From contig CBDFJG010000003.1 in assembly GCA_965248445.1 (NCBI GenBank), forward strand, positions 448,001 through 512,000: a stretch of 64,000 bases of DNA, given 5' to 3'. Shown here piece after piece: positions 24,879 through 38,197 of this stretch; position 1 is the first letter of the stretch, and every line of letters starts with the position of its first letter. This DNA comes from Planctomycetota bacterium. GTDB lineage: Bacteria > Planctomycetota > JAJSAM01 > JAJVHW01. The notes beneath the pieces are model-generated. The model did no database searches. It saw only the letters and a list, made by a program, of their open reading frames with translations, and had not been told where the DNA came from. The translations under genes and the position numbers were made by a program.

Positions 24879-26357
24879 ATGTCGCGACAGGCTCGGAACC
24901 TCTCTCGTTGGACCGTCGTGGCGCGACTACGGATCGTCGCCATCGTCGTCGGCGCGTTCGTCGTGGTGGGGAGTTGGTCCTCGGTCAGGGCGTACGTGCA
25001 GCGCTTCACCTCGTCCGCCGAGCACGTGGGAGACGCCGGGGGCACGGAGTTCTACTGTCCGATGCACCCCGCGGTGGTGCGGACCGAGCAGACGCCGTGT
25101 CCGAGCTGCGGCATGGCGCTGAGTCGTCGTCGGAGCGGCTTCGCCACCGGCGATGGGCGCATGAACGTCTCGCGATCGATGCTCGCTGCGGCGGGTGTTC
25201 GAACGTCCCACGCTGCGTGGCGGCCATTGACCAGAACGATCCGCGCGGCTGCCACGATCGCGTACGACGCGGACGGTCTCGCGCGTGTCTCATCCCACTT
25301 TGACGGCTGGATACGAGAAGTGCCGGCGGGGACCGAGGGTGACTACGTCTCGCGCGGTTCGACGGTTGCCGTCGTCGTCAGTTCCGACATCGCGGAGACC
25401 CATCAGCAGTTGATCTCGAAGGCCGGCCAGCTCCGACAGCTGGAGGCGCGTGGAGCCACGGCGGGAGTCTCGCGGGTCAAGGGCGAAGTCGAGGCGCTGG
25501 AAACTCAGTTCCGGCTCTGGGGCTTTCAGGACGAGCACATCGCGGAGCTCGCCGGGAGCGACCGCGCCGAGGAGTCCGTCGAGATTCGCAGCCGGTACGA
25601 CGGCGTCGTGACGCGCAGGCACGTGGTGCCGGGCGACTTCGTGTACGAGGGCACACCTCTCTTCGACCTGGCGGGCACGGAGACGATGTGGACGCTGCTC
25701 GACGTCTTCGAGTCGGATCTCCCCCACCTGGCCGTCGGGCTCGAGGTGACCGTGCGGCTCACGTCGAGCCCCGGGACGGAGCTGACTGGAGTGGTCGCGT
25801 TCGTCCCGCCTGAGCTCGATCCGGATCGTCGCACGGCGGTCGTTCGGTGCGAGCTGCCGAATCCCGACGGTCGGCTGCGCGCCGGCATGGTCGCCGACGC
25901 CGAGATCAGGGTCCGTCTGCGGTCGAGAGAGCCGTACCGGTCCATGGAGTACCCAGCGGACGCCACGGTGCGCGTGGTCTACACCTGCCGGCATCACGAC
26001 GTTGTGCAGGACACGCCCGGCGTCTGCACGGCGTGCGGGACCATGCAACTCGTTCGGGAGGAACTCCCCGCCGGGCCGGGGCCGGACGACGTCCTGGCGA
26101 TCCCCGCACGCGCCGTGATCGACACGGGCCGACGGCAGTTCGTGTGGGTGGCCGTCGAGGACGGGACCCTCGCACGCCGAGAGGTGCGAGTGGGGCCGCG
26201 TGACGGGGCGTTCGTGCCCGTGATCTCGGGTCTTGTGCCTGGCGAGCGCGTCGTCTCCGAGGGCGCGTTCCTCGTCGATGCCGAGCACGCGCTCGATCCC
26301 GCGTCTGCGTCCACGTACTACGGAGCCGCCCACACCTCCGCGGACGACGCGAGGTGA
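24879..26357 (+). CDS. cusB: Cu/Ag RND efflux periplasmic adaptor with heavy-metal-binding domains
   Basis: YCPMHP...CPSCGMAL, a second YTC..H...CTACGTMQL, and a membrane-fusion-protein core. Confidence 0.9.
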   Translation: MSRQARNLSRWTVVARLRIVAIVVGAFVVVGSWSSVRAYVQRFTSSAEHVGDAGGTEFYCPMHPAVVRTEQTPCPSCGMALSRRRSGFATGDGRMNVSRSMLAAAGVRTSHAAWRPLTRTIRAAATIAYDADGLARVSSHFDGWIREVPAGTEGDYVSRGSTVAVVVSSDIAETHQQLISKAGQLRQLEARGATAGVSRVKGEVEALETQFRLWGFQDEHIAELAGSDRAEESVEIRSRYDGVVTRRHVVPGDFVYEGTPLFDLAGTETMWTLLDVFESDLPHLAVGLEVTVRLTSSPGTELTGVVAFVPPELDPDRRTAVVRCELPNPDGRLRAGMVADAEIRVRLRSREPYRSMEYPADATVRVVYTCRHHDVVQDTPGVCTACGTMQLVREELPAGPGPDDVLAIPARAVIDTGRRQFVWVAVEDGTLARREVRVGPRDGAFVPVISGLVPGERVVSEGAFLVDAEHALDPASASTYYGAAHTSADDAR

Positions 26358-29300
26358 TTCGCGGTCTGATCGAGCACTGCGTGCGGCGCCCGGTCGCGAC
26401 AGTGCTCCTCGCAGTGCTGGCTTGCGGGGCCGGGGCCGCTGCGATGTCGCGGGTGCCGATCGATGCGTTGCCGGATCTCTCCGAGCACCAGGTCATCGTC
26501 TTCGCCGACTGGCCGGGCCGGAGCCCGCAGGAGATCGAGGACCAGGTCACGCGACCGCTTTCCGTGGCCCTTCAGGGGCTCGCCGGAGTGCGCGACGTGC
26601 GTTCCTCGAGCGACTTCGGCTTCTCGATGGCCAGCGTCATCTTCGAGGACGGGACCGACTTCTACTTCGCGCGCGAGCGGGTGACCGAGCGGCTCTCGAC
26701 GGCGGCGCAACGCCTGCCCGCCGGCGTGCTGCCGTACATGGCGCCCGACGCGACCGCGCTGGGTCAGGTGCTCTGGTACACGATCGACGGCAGCGATCAC
26801 GACCTCGGTCAGCTGCGGGAGATCCAGGACTGGTACGTACGCGACCAGCTCGCGTCCGTCGCCGGTGTGGCCGAGGTCGCCGCCGTGGGCGGCGCGCCGG
26901 TGGAGTGGCAGGTCGATGTCGATCCACATCGGCTCCGGCAGTACTCGGTGTCCCTGGGCGACGTGATGCGCGGTGTCAGTGCGAGCAGCTCAGCGATGGG
27001 CGCAGGCGTCGTACATCGCGGCGGAACAGAGTACGTCGTGCGCGGCGTCGGCTGGGTCGAGACCGTCGACCAGCTCGAAGCGACGGTGGTGGCCTCCCGC
27101 GGCCCGGCTCCGATCCGGGTCCGCGACGTCGCGCGAGTGTCACTGGGGCCGGGCTTCCAGCACAGTGTGCTGGAGAAGGACGGTCGCGACGCAGTCGGGG
27201 GGGTCGTGGTGATGCGCCACGGCGCGAACCCCGCGGACGTCATCCGGGACGTCCGCCGCAAGATCGCGGAACTCGCGGACGGGCTGCCCGAGGGCGTCCG
27301 CGTCACGCCGTTCTACGATCGCACTGAGCTGATCGACGGCGCGATCCACACCGCGGGCTGGATGCTCGTCCACGAGATCCTGATCGCGTTCGTACTCGTC
27401 CTGCTCGTAATGCGTCACGTCCGTGCGTCGCTCGTCATCTGCGTCGCGGTCCCCGCAGCCGTGTTGCTGTGCTTCGGGCTGATGTGGCTCTTCGACGTGT
27501 CGGCCAACATCATGTCGCTCTCGGGGATCGCGGTCTCGATCGGTGTGCTCGTCGACCAAGCTGTCGTCATGACGGACAGCGCCATGCACAGCCTGCGCGC
27601 GCGTTTCGGAGACGAGCGCGTCACGGGTGACACGCGCGAGATCGTCGGCGCCGCCTGCCGTCGAGTGGGGCGTCCGATTGCCTTCGCGGTGCTGATCATG
27701 GTCATCTCGTTCCTGCCGGTGTTTGCCCTCGGCGGGATCGAGGGACGGCTGTTCCGGCCGCTTGCGCTGACGAAGACGTTCGCGCTGGTCGCCGTGGGGG
27801 TCGTCTCGGTCACGCTGCTCCCCGCACTGCTGCCCCTCGCCCTACGTGGGCGCATCCGGCACGAGGAGGACTCGTGGGCGGTGCGGACGCTGATGGGACT
27901 GTACAGGCCGGTTCTCGAGTGGCTGACCGACCGGCACCGGCTCGTCATCGGTACGTTTCTGTTGGTGCTGGGCGTGGGCGCCGCTGCGGCGAGCTGGCTG
28001 GGGTCGGAGTTCATGCCGGCGCTCGACGAGGGCACGGTCCTCGACATGCCCGTCTCGGTGCCACGAATCGCAATTCCACAGGCGGCCGCGACCCTGAAGG
28101 CCAGGAATGCGCAGCTTCGCGGGTTCCCGGAGGTCGGCGTGGTGGTCGGCAAGGCGGGGCGCGCCGAGACACCGACGGACCCGAGTCCACTGGAGATGAT
28201 CGAGACGGTCGTGAACCTGCGGCCCCGCGATGGCTGGCCGTATCGCCACCTCGCCGAGGACGCCGCGCTAGGCGAGTTCGAGGAGGTGATCGCCTGGGCT
28301 GTGCAGGACGGGCTGCTGCGCGCTGAGGACTCCGAAGGACTGGCCGCCGAGGCACTCATCGAGACGCGGTCACGCTTCGATCGACGCATGCGGGAACTCT
28401 GTATCGCCGCGCAGGCCGAGTGGACGAGCGCGATCGCGAGTGAACTCCTCCGCGGGTGTCTGACACGGCTTGCCGCGACGATGGGCGTCCCGGTCGAGGC
28501 GGCCGAGAAGTTGGCCGCCAGCGCTGATGACGAGCCTCTGGAAGCGATCTGCGAGCGCTTGGTGATCAGCGTCGAACTACCCGATCTCCGCGACGTGTCG
28601 CGCCGGCTGGGCCGAGTGGTCGCGGACGGTCGGCAGGCTGGACGCGCCGCACTCGTCTCGGAACTCGAGGACCTGCGCGAGGACCTCATCGATCTCCGCG
28701 ACGACGCGTGGGTGCGCCGCAACGACGAGCTCCGTTGGCGGCTGGACGCCCAGGCTGCCGGGATGTTCGCGTCCCTGGCGCTCGACGTCGTGGCCGAGGA
28801 GGCCGAGCGTCGCGGCGTCCTCGTGCGGTCTCCGACGGACGAGGACAGGCGCGGCGTGGCCCGCTCGCGGTCGGGCACGTCTCGGCCGGTGCTGCGTCGG
28901 AAGTCGAAGCAGGACCTGATCGAAGAGCTGGATCGCGACCTGCGGATGCTCGGATGGGCGAACATCTGGACGCAGCCGATCGTGAACCGCGTGGACATGC
29001 TCGCCACCGGCATCCGCACGGAAGTGGGCGTCAAGGTGTTCGGCCCCGACCGCGCGACGATCCATCGCACGGCTGTCGACGTGGCGGGCGTGCTCGCCCG
29101 CGTGCCCGGCGCTGCGGACGTGTTCCCCGAGCAGACGATGGGCAAGCTGTACATCGACGTGGACGTGGACCGCGAGCGAGCCGCGCGCTTCGGCATGAAC
29201 GTCGCCGACGTACTCGAGACTGTCGCTACCGCCGTGGGCGGGCGTGCGACGGCACAGGCGATCCAAGGCCGCGTCCGCCGATCGATCCGAGTGCGCTACA

Positions 29301-30330
29301 TTCGCGATGCGCGGACCAGCGTCGAGGAGATCGAACGCGTTCTGGTGGCCACGCGGACTACGCCGGTGGGAGGAACCCAGCATCCCGATCCGATGCAACC
29401 GCCGAGCGGCGACGATGACGACAAGTCACAGCGACGCACGGCGCACGCTCACCACGGGGGCGGCGCCGGCGGCGCTTCGTCGTCGAGCGGGGGTGCCATG
29501 GGCTCGATGGCGGATGACCATGCGAGCGGGCCGGCTGGTGTCCAGCACGTCGAACTCCGAGAGATCGCGGCTGTGCAGGTGGTCGAAGGCCCGCCGGTCA
29601 TTCGCACCGAGAACGGACAGCTTCGCAGCTACGTCCAGCTGAACGTCCGAGGACGGGATGTGGTCGGCTTCGTCGATGACGCTCGCCGCGCCGTGGACGA
29701 GCAAGTTGTGCTGCCCGAGAGCGTGCATCTGGAGTGGGGAGGTCAGTTCCAGCACAGGTGCGCGCCAGGAAGACGCTGACGCTGGTCGTACCGCTGGTCG
29801 TCTTGCTGATCTTCGGCGTGCTCTACCTCACGTACCGGGACGCTGCGCACGCAGCGCTCATCTTGCTCGCCGTCCCAGGCGCCCTCGCCGGGGGAGTGAT
29901 CTTTCAGTGGATCCTCGACACCAACTTCAGCGTCGCCGTCTGGGTGGGCTTCGTTGCGTGCTTCGGCATGGCGACGGAGACCGGCATCGTGATGGTGGTG
30001 TACCTGCGGGAGTCGTTGCATCGCGCGCGCGACGAGGGACGGCTCACGTCGATCGATGCCGTCCGGTTGGCCGTCATCGACGGCGCCGTGCGGCGCTTGC
30101 GCCCGAAGCTGCTCACCGAGCTGACCACTGTCCTCGCCCTGGCCCCGATGCTCTGGGCCGTCGGCCCTGGCGCCGACGTGATCCGTCCCATGGCCATCCC
30201 GGTGATCGGCGGCATCCTCGTGGCCGACGAGTTCATCGACCTGATGCTGCCTGTGTTCTTCTTCCGCGTGGAGCGGCGGCGCTGGATGCGCCGGCAGGCG
30301 GCCGCAGCCAGTCCCGAGGCCGCGCGGTAG
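26354..30330 (+). CDS. cusA: CusA/CzcA heavy-metal RND transporter, frameshifted near 29755, with large insertions
   Basis: IDALPDLSEHQVIV, PDATALGQV, NIMSLSGIAVSIG, WTQPIVNRVDMLATGIRT. C-terminus in ORF 29734-30330 (GMATETGIVMVVYL, RLRPKLLT). Confidence 0.92.
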
Positions 30331-30652
30331 TCTGCCGCAAGCGGCTGCGCCGCATCGACAGCGTCGGGCCGCGGCCCCGCTCGGCGTCCCGTTCGCAGTC
30401 GCGGTCGGGTGTCGGGCGCCTTGGACTCGGCGGCCTCTCGGAGAGTGGCGAGGCGTTGGTGATGAGATGAGATCCCGTCTTCTCGACCAAGGTTCTTAGA
30501 GCGTTGTTGGCGCTGCCCGCCTCGCCTGCGCGCGGGGACCGCGCTCGGCGGGCCGCGAGGACAGGTTGGGTGGTGCGACGCCTTCGCCTGTCGGCTCCGG
30601 CATGAATCCGGGGCGGCGGAGCGCGCGCGAGTTCGCTCGGAAGACTCGTGGC

Positions 30653-31852
30653 TCATGCGGGCACCTGCGTGGCCGACGTGGCCACGGGTGTGGGCCGGGG
30701 GACGAAGGGCTGTTTGTTTCGAGCCACCCAGTGGACGGCGACCAGGAGCTTTCGCATGGACGCGACGAGGGCGACCTTCGGGAGCTTGCCCTGGGACCGA
30801 AGCCGTTCGTAGAAGGCGCGCAGCCAGGGGTTCCTGCGCACCGCGGTCAGGACGGGCATCCACAGGGCCCTGCGCAGCCGGGCGTGCCCGATGCGGGTGA
30901 TGGCGGCGCGTTGGCCCTGGTTGCGTCCGGACTGCTTGAGTGCCGGGACGACCCCGATGTATGACGCCAGCGCCTTGGCGTCGCGGAAACGAGTGATGTC
31001 GCCCAGCTCCGCGACGAGCCGCGCGGCGGTCTGTGGCCCGATGCCGTCGATGGTCGTGAGGAGCTTGCCGACCTCGTGGTGCTCCAGGGTTCCCCCGATC
31101 AGCTTCTCCAAGTCGCGAAGGCGCCGGCGCAGCAAGTCCAGATCCTCGCAGGCGTACCGGACCTGAGTGCGATAGGCCTCGGCGTGGTGGCGGCCCACGG
31201 ACGACTTGGCTGCACGGACCAGGTCTTGGGCAAGCTGCCGCCCGACTCGGTGACGTCCGTCGTAACGGAGCGCGGCGAGTCGCTTGACCGAGACACCCAC
31301 AAAGGCCTGCGCGGTGGGATGGCGGTTGAGCAGCGCCGTGGCGAGTTCGCTGTCGAGGGTGCGGACGTGGCGTGTGAACTCCGGGAAACCCAGGTCCACC
31401 AAGCGGTGAAGCCGGCGGACCCGGTCTCCAAAGTCCTGGACCACGCGATCCCTGAGTCTGACGAGCTCGCGCAGTTCCTCGGTGCCGGAGTCGGGCAGCC
31501 GCGTGGGCTCCGGGCGTTTCTGGCGAGCGAACCGGGCGAGCCCGAGGGCGTCGATGGCATCGGTCTTGGTCCGCTGCAGGTCCTCGCCGGCGAAGCGGTG
31601 GGTCCGCAGCGGATTGATCAGCACCATGGCGAAACCGCGCGAGAGAAGCTCCGCCGCCAAGTTGCGCCAGTAGTGCCCGGTCGCCTCCAAGGCCACGAGC
31701 ACGTCTCGAGGGACGCCGAGCAACTCGAAGAGCTCCTCGTAGCCCTGTGCGTCCTCACCGAAGGCGGTGGGCCGCACCAGGATCTCTTCGTCCTCGTCCA
31801 TCACCGCCACGACGTGCTTCTTCGAAGCGATGTCTATCCCCGCGTAGCGCAT
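30653..31852 (-). CDS. IS110 DEDD recombinase (399 aa)
   Basis: GIDIA, ALEATG, KTDAIDA, and C-terminal KQSG. RBS AGGAGG before the ATG. Confidence 0.95.
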   Translation of the reverse strand: MRYAGIDIASKKHVVAVMDEDEEILVRPTAFGEDAQGYEELFELLGVPRDVLVALEATGHYWRNLAAELLSRGFAMVLINPLRTHRFAGEDLQRTKTDAIDALGLARFARQKRPEPTRLPDSGTEELRELVRLRDRVVQDFGDRVRRLHRLVDLGFPEFTRHVRTLDSELATALLNRHPTAQAFVGVSVKRLAALRYDGRHRVGRQLAQDLVRAAKSSVGRHHAEAYRTQVRYACEDLDLLRRRLRDLEKLIGGTLEHHEVGKLLTTIDGIGPQTAARLVAELGDITRFRDAKALASYIGVVPALKQSGRNQGQRAAITRIGHARLRRALWMPVLTAVRRNPWLRAFYERLRSQGKLPKVALVASMRKLLVAVHWVARNKQPFVPRPTPVATSATQVPA

Positions 31853-31874
31853 CGTGCACCTCCTGTCATGCGAC

Positions 31875-32085
31875 GAGGAGGACCGGGAGCCTCGGAGCCG
31901 GCGACCGTACTCATCCTTGTTCATGCGAGGACGCGCGTCTGCGCGCCTCAGGATCCCGTCCGAGCGTGGGTCGCCGGTCGAGGGCGCCAATCTCATCTCC
32001 GAGGACTGCGCCTCGTGAAGGCCGCGGCGACCCTCTCCCGGCTCTCGTCGATCTCTGTCCACCGTAGGTCGCGGGCATGAGTGGA
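31875..32085 (-). ncRNA. IS110 bridge RNA with target- and donor-binding loops
   Basis: Two stem-bounded internal loops whose guides match the target (CGGCCTTC, GAGATGAGA) and the donor (GACGGGATC, ACAAG). Ends approximate. Confidence 0.88.
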
Positions 32086-32169
32086 CGTCATACAAGAAGG
32101 CCGGTCCCTGCCTCGGTGTAACCCGTAGCGGTTTCCAGAGGCGCTGACGGGCTTGCGAGCCCGAGGAGG

Positions 32170-33707
32170 GTACCCGTTCAGGTACGGCACCCGAGCCTGA
32201 CGCTCAGCGCGCGACCGGCAGCGCGACCAGCGCGGGCGGCGGTTGCCCGCGCACCGCTGCGTTCGTCGCGGCGACGAGGTAGTCGAAGACGTCGTCGCCG
32301 CGCTGGCGCAGCGTCGCCGTGACGGTCAGGATGCGTTCGACGAAGCGTAGATCGCGCTCGCTCTGACTGCCGTAGCAGCCCTTGCGCCAGAGCACCGGTT
32401 TGCGGACTGCGCGCTCAGCGGTGTTGTTGGTCGGCGAGACGCCGGGGACATCGGCGAAGGTCAGCAGCGCCTCGGCTCGGTCGAGCAGATGACGGCTCGT
32501 CCCGCGCACCTTCTTGTGCCGGCTCTCGGCGCCGCGGACGAGCAGGCGCACGAGCCGCTCCCACGTCGGGCGGAGTTCGCGCTGCATGCGCTCGCGATCG
32601 CCGTGCTCGGTGAAGTGCCGATGACTCCGCATCACCGCCTGCGCGAGCAGCACGGCCTGCTTGCCGAAGCGACGACCGCCGCGCGACCCCTCGGCCAGCG
32701 CGCGAAAGTCCCGCTCGAGATGCGCCCAGCAGACCTGGCGGCTCTCGACCGGGTGCTGATCGTACGCGCCCATGCGATCGGTCACGAGCACACCGGCGAA
32801 GCGTCGCCCGATCAGGCGGCGCATCGCGCCGGCGCTCCGCCGACGATCGATCCGGTGCGCGACCGCTGACTCCGACACGCCGCTCCAGAGCCAGTGGCCC
32901 TTTCCTCCGAGCGACCACGGGGTCTCGTCCACGTACGCGACGTCGCTTCGGCGCACGGCGCCGAGCGCCTCGGCATGTGCGGTTCCGAGGGCGCCCGAGA
33001 CGCGCTCCTCGATCGCGCTCACCGTGCCCGGCGACATCGACACGCCGATGACGTCGCGGAGAAGGAGACTCACCTCTCGCCGCGAGAGACGGAAGACGCC
33101 GACCAGGCCGGCGGTGAGTGCGCAGAGCCGCGGACCGAAGGGACTGCGCGTCACGCCCGCCGGCAGCGGCGCAGTCGTCGTCTCCTCGCAGTCGCGACAG
33201 CGAGCACGATGGAGGCGGTGCTCGGTGACCTCGACCAGACGCGGCGGGATCTCGAAGACCTGATGGCGGTGTGGCGGCCGCGTGAGCAGCTCAAGTTCGC
33301 TGCTGCCGCAGACGCTGCACTCGCTCGGCCGGTGGTCCTCGACCGAGTCGACCTCGGACTCGTCGATGAGCTTGCGCGTCGTGCCGGTGTGTCCGGGCTG
33401 AGCACCCTGGCGCTTCTTCGACGGCGGCTTGCGCTCACGACGCTTCTTGCCCCACGGCGGGTCCGACGATGGTGGCCGCGAGGACGTGCGCGAGTCTCGG
33501 CGAAGTCGGCTCTCGAGATCGTCGATCCGCGACGCTTGGCGCTCGATCACCTCGTCGCGCTTCGCGACCTCATGCTCCAGGTCATCCACGCGACGGACCA
33601 GACCTTCTACGAGTTCCCGGAGATCGCCGCCGCCGCCCACATGGGCTTCATCGTCCTCGCACGTCGCGATCTGGATCCGGGATCAGACGCAATGCCTGAA
33701 CGGATAC
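32170..33707 (-). mobile_element. Intact IS66 (ISBst12-like); transposase 32204-33640
   Basis: Ends GTACCCGTTCAGG and CCTGAACGGATAC, 8-bp duplication CGAGGAGG. Confidence 0.95.
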
Positions 33708-33723
33708 CGAGGAGGAACCGGCT

Positions 33724-34767
33724 ATGGCAAAGGCTACACGTTTCGTGATCGGGATGGAGCTGGGCGACCGCGTGGTGCATGTGTGTGTGCTGGACCGCAA
33801 GACGGGCGAGATCGTGGGCGAAGGGCGCGTCGCGACGACGCGTGCTCGCCTGACGGAGTTCCTCGGCGAGATCGAGCGATCGAAGGTGGTGATGGAGAGC
33901 GGGACGCACTCGCCGTGGATCAGCCGCCTCGCCGAGGGTCTTGGTCACGACGTCATCGTGGCCGATGCGCGTCGGCTGCGCGCGGTGTGGGACTCGCCCA
34001 AGAAGAGTGACCGCCGCGACGCGCTGGTTCTGGCGCAACTGGGGGCCGGGCACCCAGGGCTCCTTCATCCGGTGTCTCACCGGAGCGAGCGCGCACAGAC
34101 CCACATGGTCGTGCTCCGAGCGCGCGAGCGTGTGGTCGACGCGCGTACGAAGTTGGTCAATGCCGCGCGGGGCTCGGTGAAGTCGCTCGGGTACCGATTG
34201 CCCGCTTGCTCCGCTCCGAGCTTCCATCGCAAGGCACGCGAGGCGGTGCCGGAAACCCTCGTGGACGCCCTGGCCCCGCTGTTCGACGCGATCGCAGCGT
34301 TGACGGAGAGCATCGCGCGCTACGACCGCGAAGTCGAGCGTCTCGGCCGCGACGCGTATCCGGTGACACGACGCCTTCGCGAGGTACCCGGCTGCGGTCC
34401 CGTCACCGCGCTCGCCTACGTGCTCGTCGTCCACGACCCAGAGCGCTTCTCGCGCAATCGCGACGTGGGCGCGTACGTCGGTCTCGTCCCGCGCCAGGAC
34501 CAGTCGGGCAAGATCGATCGCCAACTCAGGATCACGAAGTGCGGCGACCGGATGCTCCGCCGGCTGCTCGTGCAGTGCGCGCACTACGTGCTCGGACCAC
34601 ACGGGCCCGACAGCGACCTGAGACGCTGGGGTCTGGAGCTGGCGCAACGGGGCGGGAAGAACGCGAAGAAACGGGCGACCGTCGCGGTCGCCCGCAAGCT
34701 CGCCGTGCTCTTCCACGCTCTGTGGATGAAGGACCGCGCGTACGAGCCGCTCGCTCGAGCGGCGTGA
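33724..34767 (+). CDS. IS110 (IS1111-type) recombinase
   Basis: IGMELGD, VMESG, KSDRRDA, DQSG, VAVARKLAV. Confidence 0.93.
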   Translation: MAKATRFVIGMELGDRVVHVCVLDRKTGEIVGEGRVATTRARLTEFLGEIERSKVVMESGTHSPWISRLAEGLGHDVIVADARRLRAVWDSPKKSDRRDALVLAQLGAGHPGLLHPVSHRSERAQTHMVVLRARERVVDARTKLVNAARGSVKSLGYRLPACSAPSFHRKAREAVPETLVDALAPLFDAIAALTESIARYDREVERLGRDAYPVTRRLREVPGCGPVTALAYVLVVHDPERFSRNRDVGAYVGLVPRQDQSGKIDRQLRITKCGDRMLRRLLVQCAHYVLGPHGPDSDLRRWGLELAQRGGKNAKKRATVAVARKLAVLFHALWMKDRAYEPLARAA

Positions 34768-34769
34768 TG

Positions 34770-35045
34770 ACCGACTGAACACCACGAACAACACGGGAGT
34801 CTGATCGACCGAGCAACGCGCCCACCCGGGCGATGCCCATCTCCCAACTCGAAGGCGCGACGACTGCGGTGGCTGAACGGGCCCGGCCCCGGCCGAGGCC
34901 GCGTAACTGATGGCAGCGTCGCCCTCGAGCGGATGCCTTAACGTGCACCGGGTCCAAACGACCCCTTGACGAGTGCGGATGGATGCGTGCAGAGGGAGCC
35001 GGCAACGCACAACGTGGGCGGATCGCCAAGTCGATCCGACTGCTT
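34770..35045 (+). ncRNA. Candidate bridge/seek RNA of the IS1111-type element
   Basis: Non-coding region downstream of the recombinase, the known position in IS1111-type elements. Guides not resolved by eye. Confidence 0.6.
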
Positions 35046-35051
35046 GACATC

Positions 35052-35778
35052 ACTCCTCTATCACAAGGCGCTCTGGAGTGTGCTGTCGGCCCTGCTGTTC
35101 CTGTCGGTCTTCCTGCAACTCTTCGAGAGTGACAACCACAAGTTCCTCATGAGCTATTGGGTGTTCGCCGTCGCACTCGCGCTCCACACCGATGCGGGTA
35201 GTCTGTTGGCGTGGAACGGACGATGGTTGATCGGGCTGTGTTTCACGTTCGCGGTGGGTTGGAAGGCGTTGAGTCCGGACTTCCTGACGGGTGAGTTCAT
35301 GGAGTACACGCTGCTCGTCGACTCCCGCTTCGCCTCCTTCACGCAGTTGGTGGCGTCCGTGCCGGACGAGGTCATGGCCGCGAATCGACTTGCCCGTCAC
35401 CAGGTCGTGGACCTGACCGTGACCTCCGCGCCGATGACCGTGCCCGCGGGCGTGACGCGCCTCGCGGTCGTGCTCACCGCAACGACCATGGCGCTCGAGA
35501 CCGCGATCGCAGCGTCGTTCCTGCTGGCGAGGCGTGTGCGGTGGTTGCGCCGGCTCCGGAACTGGCTACTGATCGCGTTCTGCCTCTCCACGTATGCGAT
35601 TGCGACCGTCACCGGGTTCGCATGGACGGTGTGCATTCTCGGTCTGGCGCAGAGCCGTCGGTCGGAACGGGCGGCGCGTCTCGCCTACATCGGCACGATC
35701 TGCGCGATCTCCGTGTTCTCCATCGACTGGGGCGGACTGGTGCGCGGGATCGCCGTCGTCTTCAGAGGTGACCTGTGA
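35052..35778 (+). pseudogene. Multi-pass membrane protein (HTTM-like), 5' truncated
   Basis: Several TM helices, DNHKFLMSYW and FTFAVGWKALSPDFLTGEF. No native start after the IS junction. Confidence 0.6.
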
Positions 35779-38197
35779 GCGCGCCCCGTCGCCGCGCCGT
35801 GCTGGCGGCCGCTCTCGTCGGCCTCGGTCTGAGTCTGATGGCGCTCGTGGCGGAGCGGGCACCTCGGACGCATGCTTACTCACTTCCAGCGATACGACGA
35901 CTGCGCTCTGACGTCGACCAGCTCGCCTCACAGAGTGCGAGGCTTGCACGCGCGGAGCGGTCGCTCCGGCGCGGCTCTTCGGAGGCCCGCACCGCAGCGG
36001 CGCCCGTAGCGAAGATGGATCTCGATGACGTGTCCGCGCGAGTGGGCGCGCTCGAAGCGTGGTTGGAGGCCCAGGAGTCCGCAGAGGTTTCCGACGAATC
36101 CGGGGAACCCGGCGCGCGCGCGAAAGCGGCCGCACGGCTCCTCATGGCAGCGCGCCAGGTGCTCTGGGACGAGGAAAGCGATTCCGCGGCCCGTATCGAT
36201 GCGCTTGGTGTGCTCGATGTCCTAGCCCGAATCGTTCACCAGCCGGGAATCTGAGCGGGCCGTCGTCTGTCTAAGTGCTCGTACTCGCTAGTACTTGCAC
36301 CGACAGGAGCGCCGGCCCGATGACGACAGACTGTAGCCCGCAGGGGACCCTCTTCGCGGGCATCTGTGGACGCACCGCGGTGACGCGCTTCGACGCCGGT
36401 ACCGTGACGAGCGACGGGGGCGTGCTGCTGCTCGAGCGGGTCGATCGTCGCATCGATCTGCTCTCGCGGTTTGCGCGCTGCTTCGGGGACCACCGGGACC
36501 CGCGTCGGGTCGAGCACACGGTCGGCCAGATGCTGCGTCAGCGGGTCTTCGGGCTGTGCGCGGGCTACGAGGATCTGGTGGACCACGACCATGTCGGCAA
36601 GGACCCGCTGTTTGCCGCGGCGTGCGGCAAGCGCGAGGGTGCTCTGGCCACGCACCCGACGCTCTCGCGGCTCGAGACCACGCAGCTCGGCGCCACGGCA
36701 CAGACGCGCTACGCCAAGATCGAGATGGACCAGGAGCGCGTGGACAGCGTGCTCAGCGACGTCTTCTGCGAGGCCATGGGGCCGGAGGATCCGGGCCTGC
36801 TCGTGCTGGACCTGGACCACTCCGACGTGCGGCTGCACGGCCGGCAGGAGGGCCGCTTCTTCCACGGCTACTACGGGCACTACTGCTACCTGCCGCTGTA
36901 CGTCTTCTGCGGCGAGCACCTCTTGCTCGCTCGGCTCCAGACCGCTGACAGAGATCCCGCGCGCGGAGTCGTGGACGAGCTCCGTGCGCTGGTCTTACGT
37001 CTGCGGCGCCGCTGGCCCCGGGCCAAGGTGCTCGTGCGCGCAGACTCGGGCTTTTGCCGCGAGGAGCTGATGGCCTGGTGCGAGGCCGCCGGCCACTTCT
37101 ACCTGCTGGGCATGGCGCGCAATGAGCGCCTTGAGCGACACGTCGAAGACGCGCTCGATGAGGCCGCAGCCCGTGCCGTGCAGACCGGCCGAGCAGCCCG
37201 GGTCTTTCGCGACTTTGCCTGGACCACGCTGGGGAGCTGGAGCCAGAGGCGTCGCGTGGTCGCCAAGGCCGAGCACCTGCCGGGCGGCAAGCGCAATCCC
37301 CGCTTCGTGGTGACCAATCTGCCGCCTCGTAGCTGGAGCAGCAAGCGTCTCTACGAGCAGCTCTACTGCGCCCGGGGCGAGGCGGAGAATCGCATCAAGG
37401 AGCAGCAGCTCGAGCTCTTCGGCACCCGTCTGTCGGTGCACACGATGCAGGGCAACGCCGTGCGGATGGCCATGTCGGCCATGGCCTACGTCCTGACCTG
37501 TGCGCTGCGACGCATCGGTCTCGCCGGCACCGAGATGGCGCGTGCGCAAGCCGGCACGATCCGCCTGCGGCTGCTCAAGATCGGCGCGCTCGTGCGGATC
37601 ACGACGCGCCGGATCTGGGTCTCGATGTCCTCGTCGTGGCCCTGGCAGCACGTCTTCGAGCGCTGCGCGCAACGACTGCTGGCATCCCCGAAGCCGACCT
37701 GACGTCCCGCCGCGCCGTCCGCCACACCACCGCCCGGCCTACGGTCTGCCCACACCGCAGAATCCGCGCCGTTTCGGCCGCTCACTCGCGTTGCCCTTGT
37801 GGCAACGACGACAGCATCCGCCCTCGCCTGGCCAAGATCTGACCCTGTGGACTCCGAAAGCACCGTCATCGCGACGTCTCGTGAACAGATGCGGCTAGGA
37901 ATCTGGACTCCGGCCGACGTCGACCAACTCGTCGGGGCTTTCCACGACAGTCCGCAAGTGCGGGATCGGCGCTTGCTGCTCGCTGCCGTGCGGCACTGCG
38001 AAGCGCCTGCGTGGCAGAACCTGCTGGCCGATACGGTCACGCGGACGACGTACGACAGTGCTGTTCGGACCGAGTCGCTCCTGCACCTGGCGCGCATATC
38101 CGGTCGCTCGTCGGAGGCTCGGGCGCACCTCCGCGAGATCGCGAGTCGAACGGACATGCCGGCGTACTCCCTGCTCGCTCAACAGTATCTGCAATGA
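35775..38197 (+). pseudogene. TM, coiled-coil and helical-repeat protein split by IS1380
   Basis: Removing 36226-37898 restores the frame: ...LDV-L-GIWTPADVDQ... to TGA at 38197. Confidence 0.8.
36226..37894 (+). mobile_element. Intact IS1380-family element; transposase 36320-37702
   Basis: Ends CCCGAATCGTTCAC and GTGAACAGATGCGG, CTAG duplicated on both sides. Motifs FDAGTVTSDGG, FHGYYGHYCYLPL, VRADSGF, YCARGEAENRIKE. Confidence 0.95.

Follow-up and report, generated by a model that had tools for sequence, protein, structure and literature searches.

Background

Elements of the IS110 family of insertion sequences (ISs) have reportedly been seen before in the ends of other mobile elements. 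Muller, Lauf and Herrmann are said to have described in 2001 that in Pseudomonas putida H the IS110-family element IS1383 integrates into the IS1384 inverted repeats, and the IS1111-group elements IS4321 and IS5075 reportedly target the ends of the Tn21 family of Tn3-family transposons. The usual reading of IS1383/IS1384 and of IS4321/Tn21 is a safe-site or hitch-hiking strategy. In the present study, we analyzed a nest of ISs in a stretch of 64,000 nucleotides (nt) of Planctomycetota bacterium DNA (GenBank assembly GCA_965248445.1, contig CBDFJG010000003.1, positions 448,001 to 512,000; hereafter the window). In this nest, an IS110-group element lies inside the left end of an IS1111-type element, which we call the host element. 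We consider it highly probable that the IS110 element is guided to this end by its own bridge RNA and that it lands there repeatedly.

The reported IS1383/IS1384 pair is alike in that an IS110-family element is specific for the inverted repeat of another IS. Unlike in that pair, the host here is itself an RNA-guided element of the IS1111 group, the site consists of the sub-terminal repeat together with its extension, and the sequence reveals both the guide RNA and how it fits the site. The nest also resembles the case reported for IS4321 and IS5075, in that an IS with a DEDD recombinase sits at one position and in one orientation in the end of another mobile element; there, IS1111-group elements sit in Tn3-family ends, whereas here an IS110-group element sits in an IS1111-group end. 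In our literature search, outside whose coverage most subscription journals lay, IS1111-type ends were nowhere described as targets of an IS110-group element. The mechanism is already known; the choice of target is new.

Bridge (seek) RNA systems of the IS621/ISEc21 type were described in 2024 (Durrant 2024, PMC11208160; Siddiquee 2024, PMC11187229). Like them, the element studied here has a predicted non-coding RNA upstream of its gene, with one loop for the target and one for the donor; its left guides have the sense of the top strand and its right guides are reverse complements, its core is CT, and its recombinase is of the DEDD type with PF02371. It differs from them as follows: the recombinase has 399 amino acid (aa) residues, compared with about 315-330 in IS621; the second core base is unmatched in the left guide (CA vs. 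CT); and the target is the end of a mobile element, not a repetitive extragenic palindromic (REP) sequence or a linear chromosomal site. By the published definition, IS1111-type elements have sub-terminal repeats of 11-13 base pairs (bp), with a further 7 nt outside the left repeat and 3 nt outside the right one, a long downstream non-coding region, and a recombinase of 330-350 aa with the pattern GL-P----S(t)G (PMC11187229).

Methods

The genome comprises 5.4 megabases in four contigs (C1 to C4) and is 92% complete; the window is C3:448001-512000. The elements were compared with their own genome by BLAST. The 347-aa recombinase of the host element was searched in 61 related genomes, which gave 14 loci in 10 other genomes at 37-72% identity. 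Relatives of the IS110 element were obtained from the same 61 genomes (one locus, L020, 63% aa identity) and from a species-representative collection (a further 25, 54-73% aa identity). The bridge RNA alignment contained 25 sequences, namely 23 of the 25 collection relatives, L020, and the window copy; L042, whose match was cut at the N-terminus, and L047, a 632-nt fragment, were dropped. For comparison with other samples, we used sequencing runs in which positions 30300-32300 were almost fully covered (four runs of one sample, probably the source) or partly covered (sediment metagenomes of other studies).

Results and discussion

The left end of the IS1111-type element is split by the IS110 element

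The listing of open reading frames (ORFs) and the Pfam search of positions 28500-36500 gave three transposase genes in the nest, of the IS110, IS66, and IS1111 types (Table 1). The IS1111-type recombinase is encoded at four loci in the genome: copy A in the window, copy D (98.8% nt identity), copy C (82%), and copy B (77%), in which the recombinase is truncated after about residue 181. Two right-end fragments of the IS1111-type element, F1 and F2, were also found.

When the IS110 and IS66 elements are removed from copy A, the sequence reads ...TGATGAG ATGAG/AAGGCC GG... (slash, IS110 insertion point) and then runs on to the ATG at 33724. The rebuilt left end is directly visible, uninterrupted, at three further genomic copies. 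The first-pass annotation of the window had described the rebuilt sequence as leading straight to the ATG of the IS1111-type gene, and the comparison of copies places this reconstruction within a base or two of the correct one. The insertion divides a sub-terminal inverted repeat of 11 nt (ATGAGAAGGCC), of which AAGGCC is the last 6 nt, and a putative stem across both sides, CCTCGG...CCGAGG, is readable by eye. Because AG (CT on the strand of the element) is present at both junctions, the boundaries of the IS110 element are ambiguous by 2 nt. The left tip, TGATGAG+ATGAG, is common to copies A, B, and C; that of copy D is AGATGGG+ATGAG.

The guides of the putative bridge RNA match the site and the ends of the element

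The IS110-type recombinase contains PF01548 (2.6e-37) and PF02371 (3.2e-29) and matches NF033542, 'IS110 family RNA-guided transposase', with 254.9 bits (cutoff, 140). Its G--P----SG motif is GVVPALKQSG, from residue 300. The non-coding ends of the element are 244 nt upstream (31853-32096) and 181-184 nt downstream (30472-30655), and the upstream end contains the putative bridge RNA. In the alignment of 25 sequences, the scaffold is strongly conserved and is broken by short variable loop segments. The consensus fold comprises two stem-loops, each with an internal loop and a terminal hairpin, and of its 40 pairs 13 show compensatory changes.

The variable segments of the window copy can be read as guides. 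In the predicted target-binding loop, the left guide CGGCCTTC is identical, in the orientation of the element itself, to the adjoining 7 nt of the left flank followed by the first core base. The right guide GAGATGAGA has the reverse complement TCTCATCTC, which corresponds to one base, the CT core, and 6 right-flank nt. Around the CT core, the target guides thus match the flanks at 7/7 positions on the left and 6/6 on the right. In the predicted donor-binding loop, the left guide GACGGGATC equals the right end of the IS110 element, ...GACGGGAT, plus C (9/9). The match of the right donor guide region CATGAACAAGG, read by eye, is partial: its ACAAG is the reverse complement of CTTGT at the left end of the element.

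Among the relatives, guides fitted their own flanks better than those of other loci. The left guide matched 3.87 of 7 positions in cognate flanks vs. 2.61 in non-cognate flanks (23 vs. 552 pairs), and the right guide 4.91 vs. 3.22 of 6 (22 vs. 528 pairs), in a scoring where the first two right-flank bases are nearly constant and the fixed register mis-scores some left guides. The guide segments of the window copy are carried by none of the 24 relatives (54-73% aa identity), and these relatives occupy other sites.

Two of the relatives, L027 and L028, come from metagenome-assembled genomes labelled Gammaproteobacteria and Burkholderiales and have a common left flank of about 40 nt. Their left guide, GGCGGGCT, matches this flank, which suggests a conserved target in their hosts.

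No bridge-RNA family was recognised when 29500-36500 was scanned against Rfam at E<=1; the only hit, ASdes, was at chance level. The scan of 30300-35200 for promoters and terminators gave no promoter-like site and one terminator-like site, vs. 1.9 expected. A metagenome pattern scan for the scaffold with the left guide (AGAGGGTCGCCGNNGCCTTC) gave 91 stretches, and the downstream scaffold was present in none of the 80 examined; we rejected these 80 as bridge RNAs, as they look like chance matches in coding DNA.

The site is the conserved left end of IS1111-type elements

The host recombinase contains PF01548 and PF02371, matches NF033542 above the cutoff (223 bits), and carries GLVPRQDQSG, which fits the IS1111-type pattern. 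Among the 14 loci of its relatives, an uninterrupted left end with ATGAGAAGGCC is present in 11 (in one with a single difference), about 40-100 nt before the start codon. The other three are two gene fragments at contig ends (L009 and L010) and L007 (45% identity), which lacks the motif. In all eight loci that hold both ends, ATGAGAAGGCC recurs inverted at the right end; the distances are 39-100 nt from the repeat to the start codon and 248-479 nt from the stop codon to the right repeat. Conservation among the relatives starts 7 nt to the left of the repeat, usually with AGATGGG, and the flanks beyond differ by locus, so that the left end of the intact relatives reads AGATGGG-ATGAGAAGGCC. In the genome studied here, ATGAGAAGGCC is present at the right end of copy D and is split at all four left ends. 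From its sequence, the host element fits the published definition of the IS1111 type in its repeats, its downstream region, and its recombinase. The start of conservation 7 nt to the left of the repeat would agree with the left extension, and the variable flank covaries with a segment of the right end.

These comparisons bear on the first-pass annotation, which had placed the guide target at the extreme left of the IS1111-type element, in its sub-terminal repeat, and had asked whether uninterrupted copies carry the motif inverted at both ends. The flank matches and the loci above support both points. Its description of the repeat itself was accurate in part: the motif is an inverted repeat, but it is only 11 nt long, the GG after it has no counterpart at the right end, and the window copy has no right repeat. 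The possibility that intact copies begin downstream of the motif was refuted, as they begin 7 nt upstream of it.

On the plus strand, the 15-nt site is GAGATG-AG-AAGGCCG, which corresponds to about positions 5-19 of the left end, with the crossover at positions 11-12, within the repeat. Elsewhere in the genome, this site has no perfect match, one match with a single mismatch, at C4:1674410, and 12 with two mismatches. The locus at C4:1674410 is an unoccupied fifth left end, a remnant with no recombinase gene behind it. The window contains no match to the 11-mer at up to one mismatch. With these counts, chance is excluded. The repeat of the right end fits the guides at 6/7 and 3/6 positions by reading, and it is unoccupied at 3/3 right ends. 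When compared with the 15-nt site, the 11 left ends from other genomes include one perfect match (L016), six with one mismatch (7/11 within one mismatch), three with two, and one with four. The IS110 element was not found at E<=1e-60 in the related genomes that carry those left ends, including that of L016.

We also considered that the motif might be an ordinary chromosomal repeat, or that the two recombinase genes might form one composite, so that nothing is targeted. The left flanks of copies A and B do open with a sequence, GGCGTTGGTG, that occurs 42 times in the genome, and the IS110-type and IS1111-type genes are always adjacent. However, the intact 11-mer occurs only seven times in the genome, at three right ends (D, F1, and F2), at one left-end remnant, and at three places elsewhere; relatives of the IS1111-type element in nine other genomes have the motif uninterrupted without any IS110; and relatives of the IS110 element sit in other sites. 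We regard this alternative as extremely improbable. The first-pass annotation had named an unrelated chromosomal repeat as one outcome that would overturn it, and the motif is instead tied to IS1111-type ends.

The sequence GGCGTTGGTG (window 30452-30461) continues as GGCGTTGGTGCATGAA... in about 20 of its 42 occurrences. It stands directly before the IS1111-type left tip in copies A and B, and also in place of a recombinase gene behind the fifth left end (C4:1674063-1674420, minus strand). In run X5, the tip is preceded by a related form, GGCGTTGGTGG. The sequence GGCGTTGGTG is a poor match to the left guide of the host and could be either a REP-like target or the terminus of a small, unrecognised repeat element.

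The IS110 element occupies the same position in every genomic copy

The IS110 element is present in the genome in four copies with 99.7-100% identity; other ISs interrupt two of these, and the remaining two are intact. Each of the four joins an IS1111-type copy at one and the same nucleotide, and the two are oppositely oriented (4/4); the first-pass annotation had asked whether the IS110 element always sits in this motif. To the left of the IS110 element, the flanks of copies A and B are identical for 21 nt, copy C shares 13 nt, and copy D shares 14 nt with two differences. To the right, the next 39 nt are identical in all four copies.

In run X1, a collapsed repeat contig spans 30460-32134. 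The nesting was also detected in other samples. Contigs from runs X6 and X7, of two other studies, are 94-98% alike and cross the right junction of the IS110 element by 54-56 nt into the IS1111-type left end. Of the 22 differences in the X6 contig, 21 fall within 31658-31856, which leaves at most one for the RNA region. An X6 contig also spans the left flank from 30452. In a contig of run X5, from a third study, the left tip follows a different upstream sequence, which again ends in GGCGTTGG. The junctions in the contigs of other studies indicate that the nesting is not peculiar to this assembly.

An element of 1.05 kilobases (kb) with a 332-aa protein, inverted ends (CATGCATATCCGGTTGACG...), and an 8-bp duplication is present in at least five full copies, among them C1:582968-584008, C4:86925-87967, and C4:83299-84349; we take it to be IS1595/ISXO2-like. 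IS110 copies C and D both carry an insertion of this element, at different positions, and it also cuts IS1111-type copy C at the right end.

Proposed guided insertion and the independence of the copies

The proposal of guided insertion starts from what the sequence shows: how the nest is built, how the guides match the site, that this site is an IS1111-type end, and that the arrangement recurs. In the mechanism that we propose, the upstream non-coding end of the IS110 element would encode the bridge RNA, the target-binding loop would pair with both strands of the 15-nt site, the donor-binding loop would pair with the joined ends of the element itself, and the DEDD recombinase would exchange strands at the CT/AG core. 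As the 15-nt site is present in the genome essentially only in IS1111-group left ends, the IS110 element would land inside them, in one orientation. Each of the cases would then have arisen by RNA-guided insertion.

Several observations weigh against this proposal. The flanks are mosaic: copy C equals copy D for the first 120 nt after the IS110 element and then equals copy B, and the left flank of copy D (146 nt) is 99.3% equal to that of the unoccupied fifth left end. As the genome is 92% complete, further copies may exist. The register of the left guide is noisy in the relatives, many of which match at only 2-4 of 7 positions, and no RNA run was among those found to cover the stretch. The left terminus of the host would lie where we put it according to the published 7-nt rule and the divergence of the flanks. 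Neither a circle junction nor an empty site was seen in the contigs of four runs, and contigs cannot show circles.

The sliding identity profile gives the extent of the mosaic. Past 120 nt, copy C is 100% identical to copy B over about 480 nt and only 58-83% like copy D; copy B is 88% like the other copies over the first 120 nt and thereafter 58-83% like copy D. No difference separates copies A and D over about 1 kb. Such flanks show that homologous recombination or gene conversion between copies, for which the 1.6-kb IS110 itself supplies homology, has reshuffled them, and some copies may not be separate insertions. We count no fewer than two or three distinct host contexts, rather than four clean insertion events. 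We had tried to explain the left flank of copy D as an IS66 end, and rejected this, as it is the 146-nt stretch common to the fifth left-end locus.

A single old insertion, followed by spread of the composite through transposition, segmental duplication, or gene conversion, with the IS110 copies kept alike by conversion, would also leave such traces. Identity extends past the IS110 element (39 nt on the right in four copies and 120 nt in three), copy C is a mosaic, the left flank of copy D is common to another locus, and diverged IS110 variants (94-98%) stand at the same junction in other samples, as if the pair were inherited together. However, there are three different left tips or flanks and two different types of host gene, and the IS110 copies are 99.7-100% alike while their hosts drop to 58-83%. 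We consider this history rather unlikely. Even with spread of the composite, the guide match keeps the site as the cognate target; the match is independent of the number of separate insertions.

Does the insertion inactivate its host?

The insertion splits the left repeat into 5 and 6 nt and moves the end of the host away from its gene by 1.6 kb (by 3.2 kb in the window, with the IS66 element). In IS1111-type circles, the abutted ends create a promoter (PMC11187229). A TTGAC(A)-like hexamer can be read just inside the repeat at the host right ends; the consensus scan of 30300-35200 found no promoter-like site. Transcription from such a host junction would have to cross the IS110 element.

The non-coding region downstream of the host gene contains guide-like segments, and in nine aligned right ends these columns matched the left flank with the extension AGATGG in 7/7 elements, the right end of the element itself (AT[GA][GA]AAG) in 7/7, and the reverse complement of the right flank in 3/7 (at the 7-mer level). 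The guide-like segments match the 7-nt extension; host RNA recognition thus seems to read the extension, which is still in place. On the sequence, we regard the chances that the IS110 insertion inactivates its host as roughly even. The differences between copies A and D near 35000-35030 were considered as a reprogrammed guide for the GGCGTTGG flank and rejected, as they lie 3' of the guide-like columns.

The first-pass annotation had gone further and read the nest as parasitism, probable inactivation, and conflict between RNA-guided recombinases. Its specific targeting is borne out here; inactivation and conflict are not supported in the form given there. In an adaptive conflict, the guide would have evolved to disable IS1111-type competitors by inserting into them. 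This would agree with the split left sub-terminal repeat and the 1.6 kb between the recombinase gene and its end, and with the state of the four recombinase-bearing IS1111-type copies, all of which are occupied and none of which is a clean complete element: copy A has an additional IS66 element and no right repeat, the gene of copy B is truncated, the IS1595-like element cuts copy C at its right end, and copy D is occupied. Against it, the 7-nt terminal extension of the host remains beside the flank, where the guide-like segments of the host appear to read it. Copies A and D, identical over about 1 kb and both occupied, fit movement or duplication after or around occupation, and the IS66 and IS1595-like elements damage the IS110 copies equally often, hence general decay. 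The conflict is a reading of the sequence, and we consider it unlikely. The data are accounted for just as well by a safe, repeated, and mobile landing site, as in a safe-site or hitch-hiking strategy; the benefit of the site would be that it is harmless, repeated, and itself mobile. Damage to the host would then likely be a side effect, not a demonstrated purpose.

A possible third level of nesting

The host element itself may be aimed at another family. Its guide-like segments (34870-34878 and 34903-34913) predict the target GTAAC/GTTCAGCCA, and the right flank at copies D (C1:586087-587680), F1, and F2 is GTTCAGCCATTG. In copy D, the sequence after GTTCAGCCATTG is the inner part of a terminal inverted repeat of an IS66-family element, and the far end of that element reads GTACCCGTTCAGCC. 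From this position, the host element seems to be aimed at IS66-family ends. An unoccupied GTAAC..GTTCAGCCATTG site was not found in this genome, where GTTCAGCCATTG is present only at the three right-end flanks. A chain of three levels, in which the IS110 element targets the repeat of the IS1111-type clade, the IS1111-type element targets IS66 ends, and IS66 elements insert into both, is possible but doubtful.

Other features of the nest and its surroundings

The gene of the IS66-family element (32204-33640, minus strand) encodes 478 aa with PF03050, PF13005, PF20042, and NF033517, and the terminal repeats of the element are GTACCCGTTCAGG and CCTGAACGGATAC. The genome contains dozens of single-ORF IS66-family copies of several subfamilies, 66-76% identical to the window copy, one of which lies inside IS110 copy D (C1:580517-580524). 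The homology of the window IS1111-type copy to the complete copy D ends at 35049. A 270-aa ORF without a Pfam hit (34966-35778) has its start within the right end of this truncated copy. A further transposase gene (36275-37702; DDE_Tnp_1_4, 475 aa), presumably IS1380-like, lies a short way downstream of the nest. On the other side, the nest adjoins a gene for a resistance-nodulation-division (RND) pump (AcrB/CusA-like, 26354-30330). This gene is split between two frames that overlap (26354-29779 and 29734-30330), which points to a frameshift or to an error in sequencing.

Table 1. Positions of the nested elements, genes, and putative guides in the window
Feature	Position	Strand	Remarks
IS1111-type left-end tip	30460..30471	+	left outside by the IS110 insertion
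Terminal extension TGATGAG	30460-30466	+	7 nt, part of the IS1111-type left tip
ATGAG, first 5 nt of the 11-bp repeat	ends at 30471	+	AG crossover core at 30470-30471
IS110-group insertion sequence	30472..32096	-	1625 bp
IS110-group DEDD recombinase gene	30653..31852	-	399 aa
Putative bridge RNA scaffold	31883..32050	-	upstream non-coding end; two stem-loops, internal loop in each
Putative right donor guide region CATGAACAAGG	31915..31925	-	partial match, read by eye
Putative left donor guide GACGGGATC	31952..31960	-	donor-binding loop
Putative right target guide GAGATGAGA	31991..31999	-	3' side of the target-binding loop
Putative left target guide CGGCCTTC	32017..32024	-	5' side of the target-binding loop
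IS1111-type left-end remainder	32097..32169	+	opens with AAGGCC, ends with the first CGAGGAGG copy
IS66-family element, single ORF	32170..33707	-	8 nt upstream of the IS1111-type start codon
IS66 8-bp duplication CGAGGAGG	32162-32169 and 33708-33715		
IS1111-group DEDD recombinase gene	33724..34767	+	347 aa
IS1111-type downstream non-coding region	34768..35049	+	truncated, without right-end inverted repeat
Guide-like segments in the host downstream region	34870-34878; 34903-34913; 34979-34985		TGGCTGAAC; GTAACTGATGG; ATGGATG

Conclusions

Although this nest reveals no new mechanism, it is a clean natural example, since the sequence lets us read the guide, the scaffold, the relatives with reprogrammed guides, and the target. 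This target is an end-recognition motif that belongs to another, related RNA-guided element. The nesting gives a simple test of the role of the IS1111-type sub-terminal repeat, namely the effect of its splitting on excision. If the IS110 element blocks excision of its host, this would be hyperparasitism between RNA-guided recombinases, in which a conserved end-recognition motif becomes a liability. Our finding indicates that elements with bridge RNAs can specialise on other mobile elements, which bears on how they persist in genomes crowded with ISs.

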